Assembly: GCA_963789945.1 (NCBI GenBank)
Contig: CAWBMN010000018.1
Coordinates: 213,542-277,541, forward strand
DNA: 64,000 bases
From: an uncultured beta proteobacterium
GTDB lineage: Bacteria > Pseudomonadota > Gammaproteobacteria > Burkholderiales > JACQAP01
Direction of reading: 5' to 3'
Every line of letters starts with the position of its first letter. Position 1 is the stretch's first letter. Shown here piece by piece: positions 5,067 through 58,690 of this stretch. Made by a program: the position numbers and the translations under genes. A model generated the notes under the pieces. The model had not been told where the DNA came from. It made no database searches and saw only the letters and a program-made list of their open reading frames with translations.

Positions 5067-5677
5067 CGTCGCACCAGCGAAAAATAGATGAAGCCCAGAG
5101 ACCTGCCATGCACATTGACCTCCGACTTGGTCAATCGGCCGTGGAGGTTCTGCTTGAGAGTGATCGTCAGTGCCGAGGCATCCCCGGCAACCAGGCATCG
5201 GGACAGGTCGAGCTTGGTGAAAATCCAGCGGGCGGACGAGGCGGGCAGCAATCTGTTGTGCAATAGTTTGGTCATCGACACCACGACCTCGATCGGAAGA
5301 TAGCCCGAATCCGCCAGGATCGAGACCGACTCGCCGCCAAAGCTGCAGTGCCGGGCAATCCGCTCTTCGTCGAAGGGGATGCGGCAATCCACCTCCCGAT
5401 CGGTTTCGATCAGCCAGCCGCTTGCCTTGCCCAGAGAGCCACTGACTGAGAACTCGGCCGCGACGTTCTCCGGCCTGGACGATGGCTTATCACCTTCCAG
5501 CCAGACCATGTCAGGCTGCTTTGCGATGAAGCGATGAAAAGCCAGCTGGAAACGGACCGCCTCGCCGACAGAGGATCCACCTACCGCCTCCATGACGGCA
5601 TTACACAGATCGCCGCCCTGGAGATAGTTTCGCTCGCCTTTGAAACACAGCTTCAGCGGCGTGATCTTTGGGATCAT
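5063..5677 (-). CDS. hypothetical protein (204 aa), co-operonic with KAS-III/ACP
   Basis: Clean ORF whose stop overlaps the fabH-like start. I recognise no motif. Confidence 0.5.
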   Translation of the reverse strand: MIPKITPLKLCFKGERNYLQGGDLCNAVMEAVGGSSVGEAVRFQLAFHRFIAKQPDMVWLEGDKPSSRPENVAAEFSVSGSLGKASGWLIETDREVDCRIPFDEERIARHCSFGGESVSILADSGYLPIEVVVSMTKLLHNRLLPASSARWIFTKLDLSRCLVAGDASALTITLKQNLHGRLTKSEVNVHGRSLGFIYFSLVRR

Positions 5678-7055: not shown

Positions 7056-8087
7056 CTAGGCTCGAGAATACGCCTTGTTCCGCGTGGATTCCCATCGGAA
7101 TGCTGTTTCGCAGATCACGTCCAGGTCGTCATGCTTCGGCTTCCAGCCCAGCACATTCCTGATTCTCGACGATTCGGCCACCAATTCGGGCGGATCGCCG
7201 GCACGGCGCGGTCCATCCTCGATCGGAAGCTTGGCCCCGGCCGCCTTCTGCACAGCCTGCAATACCTGGCGCACGCTGAAGCCTCGACCATATCCACAGT
7301 TGAACGTGTCCGATGTCCCGCCCGTGCCCAGGTAAGCAAGCGCGTCGAGATGCGCGCGCGCCAGATCTTCCACATGGATGTAGTCGCGTATGCAGGTCCC
7401 ATCCGGCGTCGGATAGTCGGTGCCGAACACGGTGACCTTGTCGCGCACCCCGCAAGCCGCTTCGCAGGCCACTTTGATCAGGTGTGTCGCGGCGGGCGTG
7501 GCCTGTCCAAGAGTGCCGTCGAGGCTGGCGCCCGCCACATTGAAGTAGCGCAAGGCGGCATAACGAAAACCCGCATCCTTCACGGCGTCCCGCTGCTCAA
7601 GGCTCGCAACCACGTCCCGGAGCACCCATTCTGTTATGAGCTTGGTGGTGCCGTACGGATTGATCGGCCGCAGCGGCGCCGACTCGGGAACCGGTTGCCG
7701 GTCGGGAATTCCGTAAACCGCAGCGGAAGAGGAAAAGACGAATCTCTCCACCCCTTTTTCGACGCAAACCTCGATCAGGTTTCGCGAAGCGCCGGCATTG
7801 TTCCGATAATACTTGAGAGGGTCGCGCACCGACTCGGGAACGACGATGCTGCCGGCAAAGTGAACCACGGCGCCAACCGCATGCTGCTCGATCAGCACGC
7901 CGACCAGCGCCTGGTCACCGGCGTCACCGGCCACCACAACCGCTTGCGGTGCTATGGCCCAACGATGGCCGGTGGAAAAATCGTCAAGCACAACGACCCT
8001 GTGGCCAGCGGCAATCAGCCGCCGGACGGTGTGGGAGCCGATGTAGCCGGCCCCCCCGGTCACCAGCACTGCGTCAGCCACGGTCAC
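7056..8087 (-). CDS. galE: UDP-glucose 4-epimerase
   Basis: [15 protein letters not shown] Rossmann motif, [15 protein letters not shown], and RYFNVAG. I propose GTG 8087 as the start, overlapping the fcl stop (GTGA). Confidence 0.85.
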
Positions 8088-9061
8088 GCTGTCGCCACCG
8101 CATACCGGCTCTTGAGAAAGTCGGCATAGACGAGCTTCAGGCCGTCTTCGAAGCGCGTCTTGTATCGCCAACCCAGGCCCGCCAGCCGCGAAACGTCCAG
8201 CAACTTGCGCGGCGTACCATCGGGTTTGGAAGCGTCGAACACCAGCCTGCCTTCGAAACCGACGACCCTGGCAATGATCTGTGCAAGTTCACGGATGCTG
8301 AGTTCCTCGCCCGAGCCGATGTTGACAAGCGGCGGACGGGACCTGCTTTCGCACAGGTGCCGATACCCTTCCTCCGCCATGTCGAGGAGATACAAACAGG
8401 CGTCCGCCGCGTCTTCCGAGTACAGGAACTCGCGCTTCGGCGAACCCGTGCCCCAGACCACGACTTCGCCGGCACCCTTGGTCCGCGCTTCGTGCATCTT
8501 GCGAATCAGCGCGGGGATCACGTGCGAGGCGTTGAGATCGTAGTTGTCTCCCGGCCCGTACAGGTTGGTCGGCATGGCGGCAAGGTAACGGCAGCCGTGC
8601 TGTCGGTTGTAACTCCAGCACATTTCCACGCCGGCGATCTTGGCGATCGCGTACGCGCGATTGGTCGCCTCGAGCGGCCCGGTGAGGAGGTATTCCTCCT
8701 TGATCGGTTGCGGACAATCGCGCGGATAGATGCACGACGAGCCCAGGAACAGCAGGCGCTTGACCCCGGTGCGCCAGGCTTCGTGAATCACGTTGTCCTG
8801 GATCTCGAGATTTTCGCGGATGAAGTCCGCAGGGTACGTTTCATTGGCGACGATGCCGCCGACCCTGGCCGCGGCCAGAACCACGTGATCGGGCCGCTCG
8901 CGCTCGAAAAACCCGCGCACCGCGGCCTGTTCCGTAAGCTCGAGTTCAGCATGGGTGCGGGTGACGAGATTGCGATATCCAGCGGCCTGCAGACGCCGCA
9001 TGATCGCCGAGCCAACCAGGCCCCGATGGCCCGCAATGTAGATCCGGTCGGTCGGCTGCAT
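8084..9061 (-). CDS. fcl: GDP-L-fucose synthase
   Basis: [30 protein letters not shown], and [11 protein letters not shown]. Confidence 0.9.
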
Positions 9062-12795: not shown

Positions 12796-14039
12796 ACCGG
12801 CTGCTCTATTCCGCAGCGCTCTACCTATTGTTGCCTTGGGCGCTATTGCACTTGTGGCTGCGTTCACGGCGGCAGCCGGCTTATCTGGAACACATTGCCG
12901 AGCGTTTCGGTTTCTCCGATGAACAGCCGGGGAATCCGCTGATCTGGGTACATGCGGTCTCAGTCGGCGAGACTCAGGCCGCTGAACCGCTGGTCAAGGC
13001 GCTGCGTCGGCGCCACCCTGCGCACCGCATCCTGCTTACGCATACGACGCCCACCGGCCGCCAGACCGGCATCGAGTTGTTCGGCGACGGCGTCAGCCGT
13101 TGTTACCTCCCCTACGATTTTCCGTTCGCAGTGAAGCGCTTCCTGCGCCGTTTCCGCCCACAAGTCGGCATCGTGATGGAAACCGAAATCTGGCCGAACC
13201 TGATCGAACACTGCCATCGCCACAATATCCCTGTCTATCTGGTCAACGCCAGGATGTCGGGCAGATCCGCGCGCGGCTACGCACGTTTTCGCGGGCTGGC
13301 CGCAAGTTCGTTGCGCAAGCTCGCCGGGATCGGCGCGCAGACCGAACGCGATGCCACCCGGTTCAGCGAACTCGGTGCCGAAGCGGTCACGGTCACCGGC
13401 AACATCAAGTTCGATCGTACGGCGCCGCCGGAAATGCTGACTCTGGGAACGCAGCTTCGGGAGTTGTTCGGCATCCGCAAAGTGTTTCTCGCTGCCAGCA
13501 CACGCGAAGGTGAAGAGGCGTTGATCCTTGACGCGCTCGCCTCTCTGGAGATGGCCGAACTGCTCGTCGTCTTCGTGCCGCGACATCCGCAGCGCTTCGA
13601 TGAAGTTGGCGCCCTGCTCAGGCAACGCGGCCACGCCTTCGTGCGCCGCAGCGAAGGCCGGCCCGTCGCAACGGATATTCGTTTCGTGCTCGGCGACTCG
13701 ATGGGGGAGATGTTTGCCTATTACAGCGCGAGCGACGTCGCTTTTGTCGGTGGCAGCCTTCTGCCGCTCGGCGGCCAGAACCTGCTCGAGGCCTGCGCGG
13801 TCGGCCGCCCCGTCATCGTCGGACCGCACACGTTCAATTTCGAAGAGGCCACCGAAAACGCGATCGAGGCCGGCGCGGCGCTGCGGGTTGAGGATGCGCG
13901 AGCGTTGGCCGGGGCCGTCGCTTCACTGTTTCGCGACCCCGCACGTCGCGAAGCGATGGCGGAGGCGGGAAGGCGCTTCACTCAAAGGCATCGCGGCGCG
14001 ACTGAACGGACGATGGCGATGTTGAAGTGGAAAGAGTAG
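12792..14039 (+). CDS. waaA: 3-deoxy-D-manno-octulosonic acid (Kdo) transferase
   Basis: WVHAVSVGE, METEIWPNLI, and GGSL.PLGGQNLLEA. The start overlaps the waaC stop. Confidence 0.9.
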   Translation: MNRLLYSAALYLLLPWALLHLWLRSRRQPAYLEHIAERFGFSDEQPGNPLIWVHAVSVGETQAAEPLVKALRRRHPAHRILLTHTTPTGRQTGIELFGDGVSRCYLPYDFPFAVKRFLRRFRPQVGIVMETEIWPNLIEHCHRHNIPVYLVNARMSGRSARGYARFRGLAASSLRKLAGIGAQTERDATRFSELGAEAVTVTGNIKFDRTAPPEMLTLGTQLRELFGIRKVFLAASTREGEEALILDALASLEMAELLVVFVPRHPQRFDEVGALLRQRGHAFVRRSEGRPVATDIRFVLGDSMGEMFAYYSASDVAFVGGSLLPLGGQNLLEACAVGRPVIVGPHTFNFEEATENAIEAGAALRVEDARALAGAVASLFRDPARREAMAEAGRRFTQRHRGATERTMAMLKWKE

Positions 14040-14042
14040 ACG

Positions 14043-14220
14043 GTGCGAGGTGCGAGGTGCGAGGTGCGAGGTGCGAGGTGCGAGGTGCGAGGTGCGAGGT
14101 GCGAGGTGCGAGGTGGCGAGGTGCGAGGTGCGAGGTGCGAGGTGCGAGGTGCGAGGTGCGAGGTGCGAGGTGCGAGGTGCGAGGTGCGAGGTGCGAGGTG
14201 CGAGGTGCGAGGTGCGAGGT
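14043..14220. repeat. tandem heptamer array (GTGCGAG) x25, left arm of cassette A
   Basis: Counted by hand: 10 perfect units (14043-14112), one 8-nt variant GTGGCGAG (14113-20), and 14 perfect units (14121-14218). The array starts 3 nt after the waaA stop. Confidence 0.95.
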
Positions 14221-21250: not shown

Positions 21251-21773
21251 AGGGCAAGGATGAAGGATGAGGGATGAAGGATGAAGGGAAAAGCAGGGGC
21301 ACCATGCCGAGGGGTTCCGCCGAACTATTGGTTCGAACAAAGCGATTTGCCCTGAGCGTTATCAATCTTTACTCGGCGTTACCGGGCAACACGGTCTGTC
21401 AGGTGCTTGGCAAGCAGCTGTTGAGGTCCGCTACATCCGTCGGCGCGCATTACCGGGAAGCGCAGCGCGCAAAGTCAAGGCCGGACTTTATAAGCAAGGT
21501 CGAAGGAAGTCTTCAGGAACTTGACGAAACGCTCTATTGGCTGGAACTGCTGGAAGAATCCGAAACGGCCGATCGCGCATCAGTCACCCCGTTGAAGTCT
21601 GAGGCCGGGGAACTACTTGCGATATTCGTAACCATCGCGAAGTCTGCGAAAAGAACGTTTACGAAGGAGAAGTAGAGATGTGCCGGTTCGCCTTTTTCGT
21701 TTCATCCTTCATCCTTCATCCTTCATCCCTTCATCCTTGCCCCTCATCCTTCATGCTTCCGCCTTCATCCTTG
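21251..21773. mobile_element. hairpin cassette C (AAGGATG-type arms) carrying a four-helix-bundle ORF
   Basis: The left arm has aaggatg x4.7 (21256-21288). The right arm has ttcatcc repeats plus ccttcatccttgcccctcatccttcatgcttccgccttcatccttg (21701-21773). It lies between the uppP stop and the rhodanese stop. Confidence 0.85.
21274..21675 (+). CDS. four-helix-bundle protein (23S rRNA intervening-sequence protein / Avd-like family)
   Basis: QLLRSATSVGAHYREAQRAKSRPDFISKVEGSLQELDETLYWLELL matches the family signature I recall. The first codons, MKDEGK, are encoded by the repeat arm. An alternative start is ATG 21304. Confidence 0.85.
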   Translation: MKDEGKSRGTMPRGSAELLVRTKRFALSVINLYSALPGNTVCQVLGKQLLRSATSVGAHYREAQRAKSRPDFISKVEGSLQELDETLYWLELLEESETADRASVTPLKSEAGELLAIFVTIAKSAKRTFTKEK

Positions 21774-25778: not shown

Positions 25779-26288
25779 GCAAGAGCAAGGATGAAGGCGG
25801 AAGGATGAAGGATGAAGTAAAGCAGAACGTCAAGCGCGATCTGGTTGGACGCACCAGACGATTCGTGCTTGAAGTGATCATGTTTTACTCGACTCTCCCA
25901 AGCACCACGGTGTGCCAGGTGTTGGGGAGGCAGTTGTTGAGATCAGCGACTTCGGTTGGTGCCCAATACCGTGAGGCCCAACGAGCCAAATCCGGCGCCG
26001 ATTTCGTTAACAAGATTGAAGGCGCACTTCAAGAACTCGATGAAACGGGATATTGGCTGGAGTTACTCGAAGAGTCGGGAAATGCGGATGTAATTGCAGT
26101 TAAACGACTGCAGCTAGAGGACCAGGAATTGCTAAGAATCTTTGTCACAATCGCAAAGTCTTCAAAGAAACAATCGAGAAAGAGGTACCACGTGAAATAT
26201 CACAAGCCTTCATCCTTGCCCCTCATCCTTCATCCTTCCGCCTTCATCCTTGCCCTTCATCCTCCATCCTTCCGCCTTCATCCTTGCC
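25779..26288. mobile_element. hairpin cassette D (AAGGATG-type arms) carrying a four-helix-bundle ORF, inserted between ntrB and ntrC
   Basis: The left arm, gcaagagcaaggatgaaggcggaaggatgaaggatgaag (25779-25817), starts at the first nt after the ntrB stop. The right arm (26207-26288) is a duplicated ccttcatccttgcc...ccttccgccttcatccttgcc block ending 1 nt before the ntrC ATG. Confidence 0.85.
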
Positions 26289-32774: not shown

Positions 32775-32973
32775 TCTCACCACGAAGACACGAAGGCACG
32801 AAGAAAAACATTCAAAGTGAATGACTGAACATCGATTCTCGCCAGCACACACTGTCCAAATATATCGGCCGCTTGAGATCAACATCTCCGCATTTGAAGT
32901 TCACTGCACGCCAAAAAGTCAGGTTGGCTAATTTTTTTCGCTCTTCTTCGTGCCTTCGTGTCTTCGTGGTAAG
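32775..32973. repeat. hairpin cassette F (CACGAAG-type arms)
   Basis: Left arm tctcaccacgaagacacgaaggcacgaagaaaaa (32775-32808). Right arm ttcttcgtgccttcgtgtcttcgtggtaag (32944-32973). It sits in the pyrB / pyrC' junction. Confidence 0.9.
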
Positions 32974-43361: not shown

Positions 43362-43930
43362 CTAGGGAAGCTCTGATCAAGTTCCGCGACGCGCGTTGCG
43401 CCAGGTGCGGATGACTGCTAGGGACGCCGGAGCGTGGAAGAGGGGCCCCTGGGGATCTGACCGCGTAGGCGTCCCGACGAGTGCACATGATCGGCGTGCG
43501 ATGCGAGCGACTCCGGGTCGCATCCCCGGGCCAAGGCCAGCGGAACCTGCTCCGCCTACGCGCTCGCGCTCCGCAGATGCGGCTGAAGCCCCAGCAAGGA
43601 GCGTAACAACGCAGGCGCCGCACCTGGCGCAACCCAATGACATTTCGACTCTTTAGAGGGACCGGGCGATTCGGGCCGCGTGCCGCAGCGCAGAACAGGG
43701 GCCCCTCCGGGATGTGACCGCGGAGGCACGCACAAGCACGCGCACATTCGGCACGATGCATCACGCTCTGGGTCGCATCCAAGCACACGACGCTTGGAAC
43801 CTGCTCCGCCCTGAGCGGGCGCTCTGCGTCGGCTCCTCCTTATGTAGGCCGGCTACACGGCGTCCTAGCAGTCATCCGCGACCTGGTCGCCTCGATCGCG
43901 CGTCGCGGAACTTGATCAGAGCTTCCCTAG
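43362..43930. mobile_element. non-autonomous element (MITE) with IS5-family-like termini
   Basis: Terminal inverted repeats of about 67-72 nt: 43362-43428 (ctagGGAAGCTCTGATCAAGTTCCGCGACGCGCG...GGATGACTGCTAGG) versus 43859-43930. CTAG is present at both outer ends. No transposase ORF lies inside. There is an internal imperfect direct repeat of about 155 nt. Confidence 0.5.
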
Positions 43931-43996: not shown

Positions 43997-46820
43997 ATGG
44001 AACTCGCCAAGAGCTTCGAACCCAGGGACATTGAAGTCCGCTGGTATCCGGTCTGGGAATCACGCGGTTACTTCTCGACCCGCCCGGACCACGATCGCCC
44101 CACCTACTGCATTCAACTGCCGCCGCCGAACGTCACCGGCACGCTGCACATGGGACACGCGTTCCAGCAGACGCTGATGGACGCACTGATCCGCTACCAC
44201 CGCATGCGCGGTCTTAACACCAATTGGGTGGTCGGGACCGATCACGCTGGCATTGCCACCCAGATCGTGGTCGAGCGCCAGTTGGAGTTGGAGGGCAAGA
44301 CCCGCCACGATCTGGGCCGGGAAGAGTTCATGGAACGTGTTTGGGAGTGGAAGAGCCAGTCCGGCGCAACCATCATCCGGCAGATGCGCCGGCTCGGCGC
44401 CTCCGCGAACTGGGACTACGCCGACACGGAAGGCCAGCGCGCCGGCTACTTCACCATGGACGCGAAAATGTCGCACGCGGTGATCGAGGTTTTTGTGCGC
44501 CTGCACGAGCAGGGCTTGATCTATCGGGGAAAGCGGCTGGTGAACTGGGACCCGGTTCTGGGAACGGCGGTCTCCGACCTGGAAGTGGACAGCGAAGAGG
44601 AAGACGGCCGGATCTGGGAGATCCGCTATCCGCTGGCTGATGGATCAGGCAGCCTGGTGGTCGCCACCACCCGTCCGGAAACGATGCTCGGCGACGTGGC
44701 CGTGGCGGTGCACCCGGATGACGAGCGGTACAAGAAACTGGTTGGCAAACAACTGCGGCTGCCGCTCACCGACAGAACCATACCGGTTATCGCGGACGGG
44801 TACGTGGACCCCGAGTTCGGCACAGGCTGCGTCAAGATCACGCCCGCCCATGATTTCAACGACTATGCGATGGGACAGCGACATGGTTTGTCGCCGATTG
44901 GCGTGATGACGCTGGACGCGAGAATGAACGACAACGCTCCGGCACCCTACCGCGGGCTCGACCGCTTCGAAGCGCGCAAGCGCGTGATCGTGGACCTGAA
45001 CAAGCAGGAACTGCTGGTCTCGGAGAAGCCGCACAAACTCAAGGTGCCGCGATCGGGACGCACCAGCGCGATCGTCGAACCGATGCTGACCGACCAGTGG
45101 TTCGTGAAAATGGAAGGGCTGGCCCGGCACGGCCTGGACGCGGTCGCCGAGGGCAGCATCAAGTTTTTTCCTGACCACTGGACCACGACTTATAACCACT
45201 GGCTGGAGAATATCCAGGATTGGTGCATTTCACGCCAGCTCTGGTGGGGCCACCAGATCCCGGCCTGGTACGACGATGCCGGCAACGTATATGTAGGCCG
45301 GAGCGAGGCAGAGATTCGGGAGAAGTACGCCTCTCTCCTCTCTCCTCACTCCTCACTGCGTCGCGACAGCGACGTCCTCGACACCTGGTTCTCCTCGGCG
45401 TTGGTGCCGTTCACGTCGCTCGGCTGGCCGGAGAAAACCAAGGACCTGGACGTCTTTCTTCCCTCCTCGGTGCTGGTCACCGGGTTCGACATCATTTTTT
45501 TCTGGGTCGCGCGCATGGTCATGATGACCCTGCACTTCACCGGCAAAGTGCCGTTTCGACACGTCTATATCAACGCACTCGTGCGCGATGCCGACGGCCA
45601 GAAAATGTCGAAGTCGAAGGGAAACACGCTCGACCCGCTCGACCTGATCGACGGCATCTCGATCGAAGACTTGGTGGCCAAATCGACAGTGGGATTGCTG
45701 CGTGCCGAGCACAGGCAGAAGATCGAAAAGTACGTGCGCAGAAACTATCCGAACGGCATTCCGGCATTCGGCGCCGACGCACTCCGCTTCACCTTTACCT
45801 CGCTCGCCACATTCGCGCGAACGCTCAATTTCGATCTGAGCCGCTGCGAGGGCTACCGCAACTTCTGCAACAAACTGTGGAACGCCAGCCGTTTCGTGCT
45901 GATGAATTGCGAGGGCAAGGACTGCGGGCTCGATGAGCATGCCCCGGAGGATTGCGGCCCCGGGAGTTACCTCGACTTTTCCCAGGCCGACCGCTGGATC
46001 GTCAGCCAGTTGCAGCGCACCGAGGCAGAAGTCGGTAAAGGCTTTGCCGACTACCGCTTCGACAATGTCGCCAGCGCCATCTACAGGTTCGTCTGGGACG
46101 AGTACTGCGACTGGTACCTCGAGATCGCGAAAGTGCAGTTGCTGAATCGGCGCCGAGGCGCAGCAGCGCGCCACGCGGCGCACGCTGCTGCGGGTGCTGG
46201 AAGCCACGTTGCGGCTCGCACACCCGGTCATCCCGTTCATCACCGAGGAACTTTGGCAGAATGTTGCGCCGCTGGCCGGCCGCCATCCGGGCGGCGAGGC
46301 CTCGATCATGGTTCAATCCTATCCGGTATCGCAGCCCGAGCGTATCGACACAAAGGCGGAAGCCTGGGTCGCCCAGCTCAAATCATTGGTCGAGGCCTGC
46401 CGCGCGTTGCGCGGCGAAATGTCGCTTTCCCCGGCGCAGCGGGTGCCGTTGGTCGCCGCCGGGAACGCGGCCATGTTGCGCGAGTTCGCCCCCTGCCTGA
46501 AGGTGCTGGCGAAGCTTTCTGACGTCGAAGTCGTCGACGCGCTGGCACCGACAACGAATGCCGGCGCCGCGCCGGTGCGGATCGTCGGCGACTTTCGTCT
46601 GATGCTGAAGATCGAGGTAGACGTCGCTGCCGAGCGAGAGCGCCTACACAAAGAGATTGCGCGGCTCGAAAGCGAAATCGCCAAAGCTAGCAGCAAGCTC
46701 GCCAACGCCGGTTTCGTGGAGCGCGCACCGGCAAACGTCGTCGCCCAGGAAAAAGAGCGGTTGTCCGGCTTCACCGGCACGCTGGAGAAAATCAGGGCGC
46801 AACTCGCCACGCTTACCTGA
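43997..46820 (+). pseudogene. valS: valine--tRNA ligase with a broken reading frame near the C-terminal domain
   Basis: The HIGH (TGTLHMGHA) and KMSKS motifs are present. After ...[11 protein letters not shown] the track ORF turns into Arg/Ala nonsense. The true continuation, [36 protein letters not shown]...coiled coil, is in ORF 46194..46820. The frames switch at about 46148. Confidence 0.85.
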
Positions 46821-46838: not shown

Positions 46839-47378
46839 CTCACCACGAAGGCACGAAGAACACGAAGAAACACGAAGAAGAACAGGAATCCTTAAATTAG
46901 AGGCCAACCGTTGAACGTGTCTTCACCGCTGTCGAGGGAAATCGAGGAATTGTCTCGAAATCTGGTCGATTCTGCGTTTAAAGTCCACCAGACTCTTGGC
47001 CCAGGCTTGCTTGAATCGGTCTACGAAGCCTGCCTGTGTGTAGAACTTAAGAAACGAGGCATCAGATACAAGTCTCAGGCACCGATACCTCTCGTCTATG
47101 AAGGTGTCTCTATCGAAGCAGGATTGCGTCTCGATCTGCTTGTCGAGGGCAGCATTGTTCTCGAAATCAAATCAGTCGAGAGGCTGTTGCCGGTTCATCA
47201 AAGTCAGTTGTTGACGTACTTGAAACTTGCCGATTTGCACTTGGGCTTGCTCATCAATTTCAATGTTGCCATGTTCAAGCAAGGCGTGCGACGGATCATT
47301 CGCTGAGCAATGCCATCGCTCTTCGTTCTCTTTGCTTTTCTTCGTGTTTCTTCGTGTTCTTCGTGCCTTCGTGGTGAG
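46839..47378. mobile_element. hairpin cassette H (CACGAAG-type arms) carrying an intact GxxExxY ORF
   Basis: The left arm 46839-46880 and right arm 47337-47378 are complementary at 41 of 42 positions by hand count. It lies between the valS stop and the MFS start. Confidence 0.9.
46911..47306 (+). CDS. GxxExxY protein (PD-(D/E)XK nuclease-like)
   Basis: FKVHQTLGPGLLESVYEACL contains GxxExxY. RLDLLVEGSIVLEIKSV fits D...ExK. QLLTYLKLADLHLGLLINF is the family C-terminus. The gene is AT-richer than its surroundings. Confidence 0.85.
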   Translation: MNVSSPLSREIEELSRNLVDSAFKVHQTLGPGLLESVYEACLCVELKKRGIRYKSQAPIPLVYEGVSIEAGLRLDLLVEGSIVLEIKSVERLLPVHQSQLLTYLKLADLHLGLLINFNVAMFKQGVRRIIR

Positions 47379-48651: not shown

Positions 48652-48856
48652 TTCACCACGAAGGCACGAAGACACGAAGAAAATTCGGAAGAATGATTTC
48701 TGCAGCGGGCCGATGTCGAAATCAGCCGGATAACGGACCTTATCCAACCCCTTCAGATTGTGCCCTTTGCCGCCTTGTCTTTCTTCGTGTCTTCGTGTCT
48801 TCGTGGTGAGACTTTGACTTTTCGTCTTGCGGATGGCTTCGTGCCTTCGTGGTGCG
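48652..48856. repeat. hairpin cassette I (CACGAAG-type arms) with an extra outer terminus
   Basis: Left arm 48652-48683 and right arm 48778-48810. A 46-nt extension (48811-48856) ends in a second cttcgtggtgcg terminus. Confidence 0.85.
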
Positions 48857-50410: not shown

Positions 50411-50688
50411 TCTCACCACGACGCTACAAAGCCATACGCAAAACGAAAAATCAAAGTCTCACCACGAAGACACGAAGAACACGAAGAAAACCTCAACAAA
50501 AATCCTGAAATTGGGCTTGCGGTGCGGAACACACTATCCACAAGTGTCCAGCAACTGAGAGACCTCGATTGGTGAGCGCTGCGCAATCGGGTTCGCGAGG
50601 GCAGGTAACTCTGTGCATTCCCGCGTTCAATCGATATCGTCTGGCCTTCCTTCGTGTTTCTTCGTGTTCTTCGTGTCTTCGTGGTGAG
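50411..50688. repeat. hairpin cassette J (CACGAAG-type arms) with an extra outer terminus
   Basis: An outer terminus plus 46-nt extension at 50411-50456 is the inverted homologue of 48811-48856. The inner left arm is 50457-50491 and the right arm is 50646-50688. Confidence 0.85.
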
Positions 50689-51503
50689 CTTTATGGTATC
50701 CCCCGTCAGGGTCTTGGCCGAAAAGTTCTGCCAGTGCCACGCCCGGATCGGGCGCGCGCATGAAAGCTTCGCCGACGAGGAACGCATTTACCCCCGCCTC
50801 GCGCATGCGCTTCACATCAGCCGGCGTCACGATCCCGCTTTCGGTAATCACCAGCCGGTCGGAGGGAATGCGCTCGAGCAGCGACAGCGTGGTATCCAAC
50901 CGTGTCTCGAAAGTGCGCAGATTGCGGTTGTTGATGCCGAGCAACGGGGTCTCGAGACGCAACGCGCGATCCAGTTCCGCTGTGTCGTGGACCTCGATCA
51001 GCGTTGACATGCCGAACTCCAATGCCGACTGTTCCAGATCCCTCAGGGTCGCATCGTCGAGAGCGGCCACAATGAGCAGGATGCAGTCGGCGCCCATAGC
51101 CCGCGCTTCGCATACCTGATACGGCTCGACCAGAAAGTCCTTGCGCAGGACCGGCAGACCGCTGGCAGCGCGCGCCTGCACCAGATACTCGGGACTGCCC
51201 ATGAAGAACTGAATGTCGGTGAGCACCGAGAGGCAGGCCGCCCCGTGCTGCGCATACGATCTTCGCAATTGCCACAGGATCGAAGTCGGGCCGCAGCACC
51301 CCCTTGCTCGGGCTGGCCTTCTTGACTTCGGCGATTACGGCCGGAAGTCCGGCAATGATCTTCGTTCGCAGCGCCCCGGTAAAGTCTCGCGTCTTCCCGG
51401 CGCGCTCCGCTTCGGCACGCACCATCGCAAGCGGCCTGCTGCGCTTTGCAGCGGCAACCTCCTCGCGTTTCACCGCAAGAATTTTTTCCAGGATGTCAGA
51501 CAT
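50627..51503 (-). pseudogene. trpC: indole-3-glycerol phosphate synthase with a broken reading frame and an arm-encoded tail
   Basis: The N-terminus ([16 protein letters not shown]...[13 protein letters not shown]) is in ORF 50817..51503. The rest ([15 protein letters not shown]...[10 protein letters not shown]...) is in ORF 50627..51268. The switch is at about 51259-51263. The C-terminus reads into cassette J (..[13 protein letters not shown]..). Confidence 0.85.
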
Positions 51504-51525
51504 TGAGCGGTTACAGAATCACAAA

Positions 51526-51716
51526 TCTCACCACGAAGGCACGAAGACACGAAGAAAAGCGGCAAATGACATTTGTTCAAGGCCTTTGCCCACATGAAAC
51601 TTGAACGTGTCGAAAACAACGAGATGTCCGGAAATATCGATTGTTGTTTGGGTACCGCGAAGTCCATTCTTTCTTCACGTCGAAAGCCTTCTCGTCTTCG
51701 TGTCTTCGTGGTTAAC
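51526..51716. repeat. hairpin cassette K (CACGAAG-type arms)
   Basis: Left arm tctcaccacgaaggcacgaagacacgaagaaaa (51526-58). The right arm, 51667-51716, is partly degenerate and ends in cttcgtggttaac. It sits in the trpD / trpC junction. Confidence 0.85.
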
Positions 51717-51732
51717 GTCATGTTTGCAGATA

Positions 51733-52759
51733 TCACGCCTTCAGTTTCTGGGTGAAGGCGATGAACTGGTCGAGCTTGGCTTTCGCGGCGCCGCTGGAAA
51801 TGACTTCAAGCGCCTTCTGCACGCCGGCTTCGTGGCTGTCCGCAATACCGGCTGCATAGATTGCCGCGCCGGCATTGAGCGCCACGATGTCGCGCGCCGG
51901 GCCGGGCTTGTTCGATAGCGCTGCAACGAGCATGTCCCTGGACTCAGCGCCGTCTTTGACCTGAATCCCGGAAAGATCGCTGGTTTGCATACCGAACTGT
52001 CTTGGGTGAATCGTGTACTCGCGCACTTCATCGTTCTTGAGTTCGCCGACCAGCGTTTCGCCGGCCACCGAGATCTCGTCCAGCCCCTCCGTGCCGTAAA
52101 CCACCAGGACATGGCGGCTGCCCAGCCGCTGCAATACCCGCGCCTGGATACCAACGAGGTCGGGGTGGAACACGCCCATGAGCTGGTTCCGGGCTCCGGC
52201 CGGATTGGTGAGGGGCCCGAGGATGTTGAACAGGGTGCGCACGCCCAACTCGCGCCGAACCGGTGCCGCATGCTTCATCGCGCTGTGATGGTTGGGAGCG
52301 AACATGAATCCCACGCCGATCTGGTCGATGCATTGCGCCACCTGCGCTGGAGTCAGGGCAAGGTTCACGCCCAGCGCCTCGAGCACGTCGGCGCTGCCCG
52401 ATTTGCTGGAAACCGAGCGGCCACCGTGCTTTGCGACCTTTGCGCCGGCCGCTGCCGCGACGAACGCAGCTGCAGTGGAAATATTGAAGGTGTGCGCGCT
52501 GTCGCCACCGGTGCCGCAGGTATCCAGAAGGTGGGCATGGTCGGCCACCTGCACCTTGGTCGAGAACTCGCGCATGACCTGCGCGCGCTGCGGCGATCTC
52601 GCCGATGGTCTCCTTTTTCACCCGCAAACCGATGATGATCGCGGAGATAAGCGTCGGCGACATCTCGCCGTTCATGATCTGGCGCATCAGCGCCAGCATC
52701 TCGTCGTGGAATATCTCGCGATGCTCGATAACCCTTACCAATGCTTCCTGCGGCGTCAT
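51733..52759 (-). pseudogene. trpD: anthranilate phosphoribosyltransferase with a broken reading frame
   Basis: The N-terminal 59 aa ([13 protein letters not shown]...[10 protein letters not shown]) are in ORF 52028..52759. The rest ([18 protein letters not shown]..) is in ORF 51733..52575. The switch lies in the (GC)4 run at 52581-52588. Confidence 0.85.
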
Positions 52760-52827
52760 ACGGTCTCCTGAACACTGTGGCAGATCGCAAAGCGGGGAAA
52801 CTTCATCACAGGACCAAAAGGATATGC

Positions 52828-53041
52828 CTTACCACGAAGGCACGAAGACACGAAGAAGGCGAGTGATCGTATATTCTCGACCCGATACCGCCGTGGCGCT
52901 GATGGGACGTTCGACCCATTTGCGGTCAACTTGGAACGGACCACTCCGAGATCGAAGGTCCCGCGATGCAGACACTGAAATGAGGCATAGCAGTTTAACG
53001 TGCTCATGCATTTCTTCGTGTCTTCGTGCCTTCGTGGTGAG
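52828..53041. repeat. hairpin cassette L (CACGAAG-type arms)
   Basis: The left arm 52828-52858 and right arm 53011-53041 are complementary at 29 of 31 positions by hand count. It sits in the trpG / trpD junction. Confidence 0.9.
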
Positions 53042-53062
53042 ATATCTGATTTTGACCAGCCA

Positions 53063-53629
53063 TTAGCCGCTTCTTAAAAAGTTGGCGAGGAGCTCGTGGC
53101 CCTTTTCGGTCAAAATGGATTCGGGATGGAACTGCACCCCCTCCACCGGCAGGTCCCGGTGCCGGACACCCATGATCTCGCCATCATCGGTCCATGCGGT
53201 CAATTCGAGACAGGCGGGCAGGCTTTTCTTTTCGATGACCAGCGAATGATAGCGCGTGGCAGTCAGCGGGTTGGGCAGTCCGTGGAAAACCCCGGCATCC
53301 TTGTGGCGGATTTCGGAAGTTTTGCCGTGCATCAGTTGTCCCGCATGAACAATCCTTCCGCCAAAAGCCTGCCCGATGCTCTGGTGGCCCAGGCAGACGC
53401 CCAGGATAGGGATCTTGCCCGCAAATCGCTGGATCAGGGCTACAGAGATACCGGCTTCGCTTGGTGTACAAGGCCCGGGAGAAATGACAATACGGTCGGC
53501 ACCGAGCCGGTCCACTTCTTCTAGCGAGATCTCGTCGTTCCGGAACACCTGCACTTCCTGACCCAGCTCTCCGAAATACTGAACGAGGTTGTAAGTAAAA
53601 GAATCGTAGTTATCGATCATCAGGAGCAT
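53063..53629 (-). CDS. trpG: anthranilate synthase component II (glutamine amidotransferase)
   Basis: [18 protein letters not shown] and GVCLGHQ (catalytic Cys). 188 aa. Confidence 0.9.
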
Positions 53630-53823: not shown

Positions 53824-54414
53824 TCACTTCGCCGCATAGGCTTGTCCATCAGCGGGAAGACGCCGCCGCCATGCAGCCGTCTCGATGATCAGGGGCTCGC
53901 GGCCATAATCATAAGGCCAGCGATCCACCACGATGGCTGTCTGGCTGCGCAGATCAAGGATCTGGGCAGACCAGTGTTGGGCAAAGACAATCAGAAAAGA
54001 GCGATATGCCTGGGGCATTGGTCGGTGAAACTGCAGGAATCCGCGGGCGCCGAGAGCCTGAAGAAAGGAACTGACCGATGTGGCGTGATCGATACAGTCC
54101 ATCTTCCCGGGGCCGTCCGGATCGTGCGGGAAATTTCTCCCACGATCGTTCTCAACAGGCGCCACGTCCGCGGCATACTCGAAAAACTTCTGAACCGCTT
54201 TCCCGATCTTCCGGCGTTCCTCCTCGGGAGTACGTGCATCGACCAGGATGGTTTGAACTTCGGTGAGTTGGTCTTGTGTCAGCCGAAACTGCACCCTGTA
54301 CTTGCAGCCGTAACCGTGGCAAATCGTCAATAGATCCGCATCCGACGCAAAGCCACGGGACATTGCGAGCGATAGGGCTGCGAACCAAAGAACCCGGAAC
54401 ATCGCCACGGACAT
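53824..54414 (-). CDS. hypothetical exported protein
   Basis: 196-aa ORF with a signal-like N-terminus (MFRVLWFAALSLAMSRGFA), located between trpE and trpG. The Cys107/His147/Asp164 spacing resembles a papain/transglutaminase-like triad; this is inference only. Confidence 0.5.
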   Translation of the reverse strand: MSVAMFRVLWFAALSLAMSRGFASDADLLTICHGYGCKYRVQFRLTQDQLTEVQTILVDARTPEEERRKIGKAVQKFFEYAADVAPVENDRGRNFPHDPDGPGKMDCIDHATSVSSFLQALGARGFLQFHRPMPQAYRSFLIVFAQHWSAQILDLRSQTAIVVDRWPYDYGREPLIIETAAWRRRLPADGQAYAAK

Positions 54415-54441
54415 TACAGTTCCTGCCTTCCCCCGACTAAA

Positions 54442-54834
54442 CTCTCACCGCCTTATTCAAGCGCGCTTGCATTCAGGCCCCTTCGCTCCAGGGTCGTTAC
54501 CCGCTTCATCGCTACTACGGGCCTGTCCGACTCCCGGACCGAGTCCACCGGCGGTTTTTTCTTCCCGGGGCTTCACCGGGCGGATCGCTCCACCGCAGTG
54601 TCCGAGTCGCTACCTGCTGAACGGGAAATTCGCAGTGTAAACTCCTTTCAGTTCACAAGATCAGCCAGGCTTGGCCTGGCGCACCTGAGGGCGCGGAGGA
54701 AAGCCAAAAGCAGAGAATTCGAGAGGCCAACCAGGTCGCGCTGCTTCGCTCTGCACCAGGTTTGTTTTCTTGTTCCCTTGGCTCTTGCTATTCTTGCGGT
54801 TCCCCCGCGTCCCCTGCGTCCTCCGCGGTGAGAG
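54442..54834. repeat. degenerate cassette Q (one clear ACGCRGGG-type arm)
   Basis: The right end, ttcttgcggttcccccgcgtcccctgcgtcctccgcggtgagag (54791-54834), has the tandem-unit plus GGTGAG terminus architecture. At the left end only ctctcaccgcc (54442-52) is recognisable. Confidence 0.35.
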
Positions 54835-54839
54835 CTTCC

Positions 54840-56315
54840 TCAATCCAGACGCGCGTTCAAGCCGGCCTGCGCCATTTCGGCTGCACGCAATAACGCCCGC
54901 GCCTTGTTCTGGGTCTCGATCCATTCGTTCTTGGGCACCGAGTCGGCGACGATCCCCGCTCCGGCCTGCACATACAGCGTGCCATCCTTCACCACCGCGG
55001 TGCGGATCGCGATTGCAAGGTCCATGTCGCCGTTGAAGCCGAGGTAACCCACGGCACCGGCATAGATTCCGCGCTTGGACGGCTCCAGTTCGTCGATGAT
55101 CTCCATTGCCCGCACTTTCGGGGCCCCGCTCACGGTACCGGCTGGGAAGGTTGCCTTCAGCACCGCCATCGCATCCAGGCCGGGCTTGAGCCTGCCGTCG
55201 ACGTTGGAGACGATGTGCATCACGTGCGAATAGCGCTCGATGGTCATGTTCTCGGTCACGCGCACGCTGCCGACCTGCGCCACCCGGCCGACGTCGTTGC
55301 GGCCCAGGTCCATCAGCATCACGTGCTCGGCGCGCTCCTTGGGGTCGGCGAGCAGTTCGCTCTCAAGCGCGGCATCCTGCTCCCGGCTGGCGCCGCGCGG
55401 GCGGGTACCGGCAATCGGACGCACCGTGACCATGCCGCTTTCCAGCCGCACCAGGATCTCGGGCGAGGCGCCCACGACGTGAAATCCACCCATGTCGAAA
55501 TAGAACATGTAGGGCGAGGGGTTCAGCGCACGCAAGGCGCGGTACAGCGACAAGGGCGACGCGTGGTAAGGCAGGCTCATGCGCTGCGACAGCACCACCT
55601 GCATGATGTCGCCGTCGAAAATATAGCGCTTGGCGCGCTCCACCGCTTCGATGAAAGCGTCTTCGCTGAACTCCGACTGAGGTGGTGACGGCGCCGCGGG
55701 CGCTTCCGGCGGCACCACCACCGGCTGGCGCAGCATCCACAGCAGTTCCTGCAGGCGCTGCTGGGCACGGGCATAGGCACCGGCCTCGCGTGGATCGGCA
55801 TAAACCACCAGAAACAGCTTGCCGGAAAGATTGTCCAGCACCACCAGCTGTTCGGAGAGCAGCAGCAGGATGTCCGGGGTATGGAGCGTATCGGCCTTTT
55901 GCGTGGCGGCAAGCTTCTTTTCCACGTAGCGCACCGTGTCGTAGCCAAAACAGCCGACCAGCCCGCCGAGAAAGCGCGGCAACTCCGGGCGCGAGGCCGC
56001 CCTGATGCGCGCATGGCAGGCCGATACGAAATCGAGCGGGTTGTCGTTCTGGGCCTGGCTCACCAGCGTGCCGCGCCGGTACTCGGCACAGGTGTGGCCG
56101 CGCACCTCGAAGCGGGTCTCCGCGGGCAAGCCGATGAAGGAGTAGCGGCCGAATCGCTCTCCGCCCTGCACCGATTCCAGCAAGTAAGAATAGGGCTTGT
56201 TGGCGAGCTTGAGATAAACCGACAGCGGGGTGTCGAGGTCGGCGAAGGTTTCGAGCACAACCGGGATGCGGTTGAAACCCTGCGCGGCAAGCTGCTTGAA
56301 TTCCTGCTCAGTCAT
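54840..56315 (-). CDS. trpE: anthranilate synthase component I
   Basis: 491 aa with [30 protein letters not shown], and [10 protein letters not shown]. Confidence 0.95.
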
Positions 56316-57172: not shown

Positions 57173-57336
57173 CTCACCACGAAGACACGAAGAAGACCGG
57201 ATGCTTCAGCAGAGACCAATCGTCAGAGTACGTCGTAGCTGAAACCGGGGTTTCATTGAAAGCTTACCTGCAGGGAATTTCCATGGCCAAAGCGGCTACT
57301 TCGCAGTTCTTCGTGTCTTCGTGCCTTCGTGGTGAG
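57173..57336. repeat. hairpin cassette M (CACGAAG-type arms)
   Basis: The left arm (57173-57196) has 2 units and the right arm (57307-57336) has 3 units. The core is homologous to that of cassette N. Confidence 0.85.
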
Positions 57337-58546: not shown

Positions 58547-58690
58547 TCTCACCACGAAGGCACGAAGAGACGAAGGAAACCGAATGCCTAAGTGGAGACC
58601 AACCGTCAAACTGCGTCGTAGCTGAAACCGGGGTTTCATTGAATGCTTACCTGCACGGAATTTCCATAGCCAAAGCGGCTACTTCGCGAG
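58547..58690. repeat. hairpin cassette N (CACGAAG-type), right arm missing
   Basis: Left arm tctcaccacgaaggcacgaagagacgaaggaa (58547-78). The core (58579-58690) aligns with the core of M with about 13 mismatches in about 110 nt by hand alignment. No cttcgtg arm follows. Confidence 0.8.

Follow-up and report, generated by a model that had tools for sequence, protein, structure and literature searches.

Repeat-armed hairpin cassettes at the junctions of a trp operon resemble the intervening sequences of 23S rRNA

What are the inverted repeats that occupy the spacers of a trp operon, and do they serve that operon? On the minus strand of a 64,000-nucleotide stretch of DNA from an uncultured beta proteobacterium (contig CAWBMN010000018.1; the whole stretch is called the window here), the trpG-trpD junction, the trpD-trpC junction and the spacer downstream of trpC each hold a segment bounded by inverted arrays of the heptamer CACGAAG. 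We call these segments cassettes L, K and J. The initial annotation had proposed that their stems segment or stabilize the trp transcript or uncouple expression of the three genes. Our analysis led us to a different explanation. We think it rather probable that J, K and L, together with a fourth cassette, N, belong to a class of selfish hairpin cassettes that is widespread and of the same kind as the intervening sequences (IVSs) of 23S rRNA, and that these four have no cargo and are in part decayed.

The open reading frame (ORF) list and the sequence bore out the arrangement, which on the minus strand reads trpG, L, trpD, K, trpC, J. Related loci used for comparison carry numbers such as L121. 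The features of the operon are as follows.

53063..53629, minus strand: trpG (anthranilate synthase component II), 188 aa, intact, a 100% match to P0001 with GATase/Peptidase_C26 domains.
52828..53041, minus strand: cassette L, with arms at 53041..53012 and 52857..52828 and a noncoding interior of 154 nt.
51733..52759, minus strand: trpD, as two overlapping ORFs (52028..52759 and 51733..52575), with one extra base near 52585.
51527..51715, minus strand: cassette K, with an intact 3' arm (CTTCGTGTCTTCGTGCCTTCGTGGTGAG), a decayed 5' arm (TTAACCACGAAGACACGAAGACGAGAAGG) and an interior of about 130 nt.
50627..51503, minus strand: trpC, as two ORFs (50817..51503 and 50627..51268), with one extra base near 51255; 96.9% identity to L121.
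50458..50688, minus strand: cassette J, with 32-nt arms that are 100% complementary (CTCACCACGAAGACACGAAGAACACGAAGAAA) and an interior of 167 nt.
50412..50457, minus strand: relic of an older right arm outside J (...TTTGTAGCGTCGTGGTGAG), recognized by sequence comparison.
54675..54836, minus strand: cassette N, 7 nt past the trpE stop, with left arm CTCACCGCGGAGGACGCAGGGGACGCGGGGG, a degenerate right arm and the unit GACGCRGGG.
54840..56315, minus strand: trpE (anthranilate synthase component I), with Pfam Chorismate_bind and Anth_synt_I_N.

We found 81 copies of CACGAAG in the window, compared with 11.1 +/- 2.9 in shuffled sequences, none of which reached 81; the copies fall into 11 arm sets. 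The arms of L begin with CTCAC or CTTAC, followed by CACGAAGG and two successive CACGAAGA units. An inverted-repeat scan gave arms of 43 nt for L, 86% complementary with a perfect core of about 27 to 29 bp, and weaker outer pairing stretches this cassette to 52815..53054. The arms of K are imperfect, with a perfect run of about 17 bp within a stem of about 29 bp. Altogether the arms predict stems of 27 to 45 bp, close to the 30 to 45 bp that had been claimed for each cassette. When folded as sense-strand RNA, L gave -110.1 kcal/mol (z = -7.95), K gave -69.6 kcal/mol (z = -2.77) and J gave -116.7 kcal/mol (z = -4.75). Thus, J, L and K all have the terminal inverted repeats, the stem of about 25 bp or more and the variable interior of an IVS. 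An independent assembly from short reads, L271, also contains cassette L (99.6% identity over 239 nt), which is therefore not an assembly artifact.

The cassettes share a general anatomy: two inverted arms of 2 to 5 tandem units of 7 to 9 nt around a variable interior. In the window an arm starts with CTCAC (variants TTAAC and TTCAC) and continues with 2 to 4 CACGAAG units, each followed by 1 to 3 variable bases, so that the unit is mostly CACGAAGR and the terminus CTCAC. More generally, the unit pattern is CRCNNAG in soil bacteria, and other heptamers are found in cyanobacteria. Unit length rises inward in several copies, from 8 to 9 and then 10 nt, and within one cassette the partner arm repeats the individual order of the units. 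Interiors range from 95 to 450 nt and are mutually unrelated, except for those of cassettes I and S. Full-size members carry one small gene, of either the GxxExxY/PDDEXK_3 or the four-helix-bundle 23S_rRNA_IVP family. Each cassette starts 0 to 27 nt past the upstream stop codon. Because pairing continues outward from the arms into a weaker A/T-rich segment (AAAAT|CTCAC...GTGAG|ATTTT), almost all of the K spacer and the greater part of the L spacer are predicted to fold into a single rod, with the upstream stop codon at its base; the next start codon lies near the base for K and about 50 nt further on for L.

We compared trp loci of related soil bacteria, which we reached through TrpG homologues; comparison of the trpG-D-C spacers was also the check that the initial annotation had suggested. 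In L128, whose TrpG is 86% identical, the trpG-trpD spacer is 60 nt, the trpD-trpC spacer is 12 nt, and both are cassette-free. Therefore, K and L are insertions. Cassette L has no counterpart in L121, L122 or L128. Between the window and L121 the coding sequences are 97 to 98.4% identical, and the L spacer and the J interior show no homology; at the L spacer, similarity breaks off in the last two or three trpG codons and resumes at the trpD start codon. The trpG-trpD site is occupied by four different cassettes across strains that are at least 98% identical in TrpG.

Type 1: the window and L271, at 99.6% identity.
Type 2: L268-L270, a CACGAAG cassette with a full-length match to cassette B of the window (pyrB-pyrC), 78.8% over 203 nt.
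Type 3: L272-L275, a CACCAAGG cassette that L126 and L127 also have.
Type 4: L121 and L122, a CGCCAAGGA cassette.

Other sites behave in the same way. Cassette K is also present in L121-L123, with indels and a changed number of units in its arms: in the K spacer the window matches L121 at 97.4% identity, with indels in the 5' arm, and unit number differs among the window, L121 and L122. The arms, with 2 to 4 CACGAAGR units each, thus share with the Coxiella 23S IVS a unit number that varies among strains. The K 5' arm has lost bases with no compensating changes in the other arm. At the same trpD-trpC junction, L126, L127 and L129 carry an intact, co-oriented GxxExxY gene within GACGCAGAG arms. 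At the J site, L121, L126 and L128 have a different interior, related among the three, and the relic at 50412..50457 is the counterpart of the right-arm terminus of the L121 cassette, which is still intact there. Cassette N is a decayed fourth cassette of the trp operon with a unit unlike CACGAAG; it is kept in L121, is shortened in L122 and L124 by a deletion of 82 nt between AAGCCTGG direct repeats, and has an intact version with CGCAGAGGA arms in L129. Cassettes also match across loci. Cassette C of the window, which lies after pepA, matches an L121 cassette at a porin/MFS (major facilitator superfamily) junction (80% over 217 nt), the interior shared by I and S is found again in another genome, L017, and the interior of A matches that of the L129 trpG-trpD cassette, although the arms differ. 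Judged from these alignments, cassettes appear to arrive, move, give way to others and decay within the time that strains take to diverge.

These comparisons bear directly on the first alternative, that the cassettes are mRNA modules selected by the host to segment or stabilize the trp transcript or to uncouple trpG, trpD and trpC. Stable stems do lie exactly at the three junctions, none of the cassettes is in a divergent (promoter) spacer, and the window and L121 agree at all of the last 113 nt (3' end) of the K spacer, for which the rate seen in coding sequence predicts about 3 differences. However, two of the junctions are empty in L128, unrelated cassettes occupy the L site in strains whose trp coding sequences are 97 to 98% identical or whose TrpG is at least 98% identical, and the J-site interior of L121 is unrelated. 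The K 5' arm decays without compensation, and half of N is deleted in two strains. The same cassette types also occur at unrelated operons (pyrB-pyrC, ntrB-ntrC, rpe-gph). A device serving the trp operon is therefore unsupported, and we regard host-selected modules as unlikely.

We confirmed the density that had been noted in the initial annotation, of eight CACGAAG cassettes between 46.8 and 60.3 kb. Seven of them (D, E, J, K, L, I and M) are complete, whereas S, which starts at 58553, has no clear right arm. Upstream of this group lie three more, A, B and C. We count 15 cassettes in the 64 kb, 11 of the CACGAAG type and 4 with other arm units, the latter including two with GGATGAAG arms, one with GACGCAAAG and N. 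All 15 lie in co-directional or convergent spacers (pyrB-pyrC, ntrB-ntrC, rpe-gph, apaG-mltA, and after valS, pepA and bacA), and none lies in a divergent spacer. Four of those outside the trp operon deserve description.

46839..47378, plus strand: cassette D, full-size, with 46-nt CACGAAG arms that are 96% complementary and an intact GxxExxY/PDDEXK_3 gene inside (TIGR04256, E = 1e-42; PF13366, E = 2.5e-42); it sits between valS and an MFS gene, co-oriented with both.
25781..26287, plus strand: cassette with GGATGAAG arms and a four-helix-bundle gene of the 23S_rRNA_IVP family (TIGR02436, E = 5e-21); it sits between ntrB-like and ntrC-like genes, co-oriented.
21258..21773, plus strand: cassette with GGATGAAG arms and a four-helix-bundle gene (TIGR02436, E = 1.6e-22; PF05635, E = 8.5e-17), directly 3' of bacA/uppP.
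32776..32973, minus strand: cassette B, at the pyrB-pyrC junction.

The cargo of the GGATGAAG cassettes belongs to Pfam PF05635, named the 23S rRNA-intervening sequence protein, and it lies between arms of the same design as those in the trp operon. The 23S_rRNA_IVP ORF is present in cassettes 21258-21773 and 25781-26287; J, K and L have no ORF. We searched the interiors of J, K and L in six frames with hmmsearch for GxxExxY and four-helix-bundle remnants and found none (best E = 0.36); the positive control gave 4e-57, and short remnants could escape such a search. The idea that these interiors are decayed cargo genes is thus unsupported. Rfam searches, of the whole window with gathering thresholds and of 50-55 kb in E-value mode, found no cassette family, only a tRNA-Met and a weak group II intron match. 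They found no rRNA in the window either: the cassettes lie between protein-coding genes and not in helix 9, 25 or 45 of a 23S rRNA.

The comparison with 23S IVSs was right as a structural claim, and the likeness goes further than the analogy that was drawn, extending to PF05635 cargo, the design of the arms and the repeats of the Coxiella IVS; the part of the comparison that made the stems a device of the trp operon was not supported. The Coxiella burnetii helix-45 IVS is 428 to 444 nt long, has a 28-bp terminal stem and holds a decaying S23p ORF of the PF05635 family (PMC4990558). Its 5' region consists of AGAAGA followed by 2 or 3 tandem GACAGAT heptamers, the number depending on the strain, and it is cut in vitro by both Coxiella and Escherichia coli RNase III, the 5' cut falling at the start of the first repeat (PMC4990558). 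Like this element and the Leptospira IVSs, the cassettes have terminal inverted repeats, a stem of about 28 bp and an interior of 100 to 450 nt; the short tandem repeats of variable number, which in Coxiella are heptamers in the 5' region, and the sporadic, horizontal-looking distribution are also shared, and the optional, often decaying four-helix-bundle S23p/PF05635 cargo has its counterpart in the two window cassettes with GGATGAAG arms. CACAGAT arms, moreover, flank GxxExxY genes in L227, L241 and L265. The cassettes differ in lying in mRNA spacers of ordinary operons rather than in rRNA helices, in using octamer units (CACGAAGR) and in the lack of an ORF in J, K and L. IVSs are transcribed within their host RNA and excised by RNase III, a step that the cassettes would share by inference. 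To judge from sequence, then, a proven RNase III substrate appears to have the same build as the cassettes here. Because the repeat-stemmed Coxiella IVS is cut by RNase III, it is likely that the enzyme cuts the trp transcript at L and J and hence segments the trpGDC mRNA; cutting of the decayed K is less certain.

Correia elements (CREE/NEMIS, for Correia repeat enclosed elements and Neisseria miniature insertion sequences) offer a second precedent for RNase III acting on inverted-repeat hairpins within mRNAs (PMC2649163). They too are small, bounded by inverted repeats and co-transcribed with their neighbors, and their hairpin binds RNase III and is cleaved or protected, with altered expression of the adjacent gene (PMC2649163). 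They differ from the cassettes in having a fixed 26-bp inverted repeat and a conserved core, in being confined to Neisseria and in having neither cargo genes nor tandem-unit arms.

We propose the following mechanism. A cassette would insert at a gene junction, 0 to 27 nt from the upstream stop, and be transcribed with the operon. Its arms would zip in the RNA into a rod of 27 to 45 bp, with the insert looped out and the upstream stop at the base of the rod. RNase III would most likely cut L and J, and less surely K, severing the trpGDC transcript at each junction. Such cutting would be the consequence of an element making its own insertion harmless, and not regulation that evolved for trp.

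Several observations weigh against this explanation. If the arms were maintained as RNA helices, G:U mismatches should exceed A:C mismatches on the cargo sense strand. We found 98 G:U and 87 A:C (p = 0.46), no excess, and an earlier, small test by the orientation of flanking genes was equally flat. This argues against selection on the arms at the RNA level, and the complementarity looks like that of a DNA palindrome, recently copied or homogenized, rather than of an RNA helix tuned by selection. The imperfect arms of K may make it a poor RNase III substrate, and co-transcription and cleavage, like the rationale of self-insulation, are steps that we infer. The descent of J, K and L from gene-bearing cassettes is unproven because their interiors hold no cargo remnant. 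We found no transposase. Direct repeats at offsets of 0 to 6 nt from the arms of 55 complete cassettes were not enriched over those of shuffled partners, and so no target-site duplication was found; the true ends may lie further out than this test covered. The argument for mobility therefore comes from distribution alone. Part of the replacement seen among strains may be exchange of old spacer alleles by homologous recombination through the flanking genes. Inspected by eye, the stretch immediately downstream of J and before the porin gene seems mosaic and closer to L126 than to L121. Finally, the orientation of neighboring genes in the wider survey below was taken from a crude ORF heuristic with visible errors in this GC-rich window.

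We then asked how far the class extends. An exact scan for ACCACGAAGRCACGAAG, with one genome per species, gave at least 120 loci. By our own arithmetic about 140 matches would be expected by chance in 596 Gb. Among the 120 matches listed, a third unit adjoined in 82 and an inverted partner lay within 1.5 kb in 43, and the additional units and inverted partners are therefore not producible by chance. The hosts among the matches listed include Acidobacteriota, Planctomycetota, Chloroflexota, Omnitrophota, a Heliobacteriaceae genome (Bacillota), Gemmatimonadota, Kiritimatiellae and Alpha-, Beta- and Gammaproteobacteria; cultured isolates also appear, Methylobacter tundripaludum and Thiohalophilus thiocyanatoxydans. 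A 17-mer arm pattern also occurs in 56 viral or prophage contigs (L130-L185, IMG/VR), with inverted partners in several of them (L139, L161, L168), and spread from phylum to phylum may have gone by way of such contigs. Many copies consist of a bare hairpin whose loop has 8 to 45 nt, and the long ones carry a gene, which is of the GxxExxY family in cassette D and in the cassettes of L058, L096, L101, L126, L127 and L129; the L024 cassette has a weak DUF4926 match.

Starting instead from the cargo, we took 80 metagenomic GxxExxY loci, seeded from cassette D, of which 74 had both flanks. In 89% of the 74, the gene was flanked by inverted arms that scored above the 95th percentile of position-shifted controls. 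Nearly all of these arms are tandem arrays, of CGCAAAG, CACGAAG, CACCAAG, CACAGAG, CGCAGAGGA, CACAACG, CACAGAT and other units; a period of 8 to 9 nt was seen in 45/59 arms, and C[AG]CNNA[AGT] occurred at least twice in 51/59. The gene lay inside the hairpin at 57 loci and between two separate hairpins at 11. Its upstream neighbor was co-oriented in 50/62 loci, and where the cargo lay between co-directional genes it agreed with them in 26 cases and opposed them in 7. Cargo and arms showed negligible co-evolution, in that protein identity was 55.5% versus 53.5% and arm family barely tracks cargo phylogeny. A PDB sequence search gave no match for GxxExxY; the four-helix-bundle protein matched one uncharacterized structure, 2rld.

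Four-helix-bundle genes on cyanobacterial, Chloroflexota and Bacteroidota plasmids gave a similar picture. They were co-oriented inside operons in 7/7 cases (DISARM [defense island system associated with restriction-modification]/BREX [bacteriophage exclusion], restriction-modification, cas1, fabH), with clear inverted tandem heptamers or octamers on both sides in 5/7 and weaker ones in the other 2; the units were AATTCGT x4, GTCGGAR x4, AATCCCC/AATCGTA, GGATGAA and TTTTAGA. In plasmids L277-L280 such genes lie with their repeat arms inside defense operons, namely between DISARM drmD and BREX pglX, between genes for a helicase and an N6-methylase, next to a HEPN gene and upstream of cas1. Among viral contigs we found only two four-helix-bundle loci, without clear arms.

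We also advance, tentatively and as somewhat less likely than not, a larger proposal: 23S IVSs may be no more than a minority, living in rRNA, of a pan-bacterial cassette family that has arms of tandem repeats and whose main habitat would be ordinary operon junctions. Its cargo would be the GxxExxY (PD-(D/E)XK) and four-helix-bundle genes, its arms would be handles for excision by RNase III and would thereby leave an insertion almost without harm, and the inverted short tandemly repeated repetitive (STRR) sequences of cyanobacteria and the paired sites of Geobacter would be arms of the same family. The cyanobacterial STRR or heptamer arrays and the TAACTGA repeats of Beggiatoaceae resemble the cassettes as intergenic tandem heptamers that are patchy across phyla. 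They differ in having been described as direct repeats, with a suggested translational role (PMC4679880). On Nostoc, Planktothrix and Gloeocapsa plasmids we found heptamer arrays as inverted pairs flanking four-helix-bundle genes; the searchable literature holds no description of such pairing of STRR around cargo genes.

The Geobacter metallireducens sites (Aklujkar et al. 2009, PMC2700814) are each built of 3 to 5 tandem units of 7 to 9 nt, the outer ones degenerate. Two such sites form a pair, one on each strand, with variable spacing; there are tens of intergenic copies, some of them in amino acid biosynthesis operons, where they adjoin trpB2 and lie between proB and proA. The tandem units with degenerate outer ones, the opposed pairing at varying distance and the intergenic position are all found in the window cassettes. 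The units differ (GTTGCTYN, TCTCCGTS, MTYCTGA), the sites were read as binding sites for integration host factor (IHF), HU or another regulator, and that description drew no link to cargo genes, hairpins or IVSs (PMC2700814). This raises a second alternative, that the arms here are DNA arrays binding a nucleoid protein or global regulator such as IHF or HU, as proposed for G. metallireducens. The match to the paired tandem-octanucleotide architecture favors it, as do the iteration of short units that is typical of protein-binding arrays and the occurrence of CRCNNAG in several phyla. However, the arms copy each other's unit order and spacing, which no binding array requires, and dozens of unrelated unit sequences occur, even within one genome. 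Binding would also leave the cargo genes and the orientation bias unexplained, and the Coxiella member acts as RNA. We think this explanation quite improbable.

Nor do we give much credence to a third, that these are ordinary MITEs (miniature inverted-repeat transposable elements), which would be deletion derivatives of a DDE transposon moved in trans, with any RNA effect incidental. It would fit terminal inverted repeats with a conserved end (YTMAC), the density of 11 CACGAAG and 4 other cassettes in 64 kb and the recurrence of interior families across loci. Against it stand the missing target-site duplication, carried genes that are not transposases, and interiors that are mostly unrelated among copies with the same arms (only I and S are alike in the window, although several small interior families exist). 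The same interior can also be joined to different arm families, as in A and the L129 cassette, and arms barely track cargo. The repetitive extragenic palindromic elements (REP), with their mosaic (BIME) and hairpin (REPIN) assemblies and their REP-associated tyrosine transposases (RAYTs), likewise are high-copy palindromes 3' of operon genes without target duplication, and they have a known effect on mRNA stability. A REP unit differs in being itself an imperfect palindrome of 20 to 40 nt with a GTAG head, and cassette interiors are long and variable; the cassette arms are tandem A/G/C-only octamers, almost entirely purine plus C, that do not pair with themselves. No RAYT was identified among the genes adjoining cassettes, to which that search was limited.

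The last alternative, intrinsic and possibly bidirectional terminators or attenuators built from repeats, is the least probable of all, since, for all that an A-rich flank on one side is often matched by a T-rich flank on the other (AAAAT|CTCAC...GTGAG|ATTTT) and J stands at the operon end followed by ACUUUGAUUUUUCGUUUU, K and L lie inside an essential operon without a U-tract directly after the stem, the U-rich stretch of J comes only after GGUGAGAC, stems of 27 to 45 bp with loops of 100 to 450 nt are unlike known terminators, many cassettes lie between co-transcribed genes (ntrB-ntrC, pyrB-pyrC), and terminator and promoter scans over 49.8-55 kb were both at or below chance (2 terminator sites in 5.2 kb, versus 5.6 by chance). 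Each of these alternatives accounts for fewer observations than selfish cassettes of the IVS kind do.

Several further observations concern these loci. At the 3' end of trpC (50627-50720), the stop codon of relatives (TGA after ...LFG in L121) is CAA in the window; the trpC ORF thus continues through the 5' arm of J for about 31 extra residues, and the arm would be translated if the sequence is correct. Single-base indels split trpD (52575-52590), trpC (51250-51260) and valS (46194-46522) each into two overlapping ORFs. All three genes are intact in L121 and L126, where trpD has 341 aa (the window is 98.4% identical to L121 in nucleotides, with a one-base gap), and the assembly L128, of the 'contig_' type, shows similar breakage. 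The splits are probably long-read assembly errors and not pseudogenes. Between trpE and trpG, an ORF of 196 aa with a signal-peptide-like N terminus and no Pfam match (53824-54414, minus strand) is kept in L121-L125 and L268-L276, whereas L126 and L129 lack it. Upstream of this ORF, a segment of 240 nt (54420-54660) contains a weak Rfam match to group II intron D1-D4 at 54492-54654 (21 bits, E = 0.12), far under the gathering score.

Cassettes E (48811-48856) and J (50412-50457) have in common an outer extension of 46 nt, in which a partial arm follows ACTTTGAYTTTTCGTYTTGCGKATGG, as though a nested or sequential insertion had stranded an older arm beyond the present one. Two trp-region cassettes of L129 have inside their arms, at 5275-5310 and 7880-8170, an element of another kind, whose end is GGATTCTTTTCTATACCCCCTTGAGGGGTGCGC, and this suggests that the arms are themselves targets for insertion. 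A noncoding interior module of about 110 nt is common to five cassettes in three genomes, at 80 to 97% identity.

Window: 57195-57306 and 58575-58690, copies of the module.
L121: 943-1051 and 2324-2434, copies of the module.
L017: 464-576, a copy of the module.

The module holds a small hairpin, TGAAACCGGGGTTTCA, and no conserved ORF, and it could be a small RNA or a binding site. Elsewhere in the window, about 25 tandem GGTGCGA heptamers with one irregular unit occupy 14042-14220, directly after an ORF ending at 14039, and no inverted partner of this array was found. A perfect 34-nt inverted repeat (CTAGGGAAGCTCTGATCAAGTTCCGCGACGCGCG) at 43362-43395 and 43897-43930 encloses 501 nt; it is a different, MITE-like element, because it has no tandem units.

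Palindromic intergenic elements, IVSs, the paired octamers of Geobacter and the IVS heptamers of Coxiella are already known. In the searchable literature we found no description of such a class of cassettes outside rRNA or of IVS-type elements in mRNA operons, nothing tying GxxExxY and four-helix-bundle genes to tandem-repeat arms, and no connection among 23S IVSs, these gene families, cyanobacterial heptamers and Geobacter octamers. The window joins these things, including the abundant and uncharacterized GxxExxY and four-helix-bundle genes: an IVS-like architecture, in which the arms consist of repeats, the cargo family is the same and the ORF may be missing, is dense inside housekeeping operons, and its gain, loss and replacement are seen between near-identical strains. 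For annotation and operon prediction in environmental genomes this matters, as the cassettes probably create spurious ORFs (here the arm-encoded tail of TrpC), break short-read assemblies and sever polycistronic mRNAs at many junctions. More than 25 years after the discovery of IVSs, their function and origin were still unclear (PMC4990558). If the pan-bacterial family is real, it would provide a concrete and testable source for the origin of IVSs and would point to a cargo protein as a factor in mobility or maintenance, and there are cultured carriers in which mobility and dependence on RNase III can be tested.

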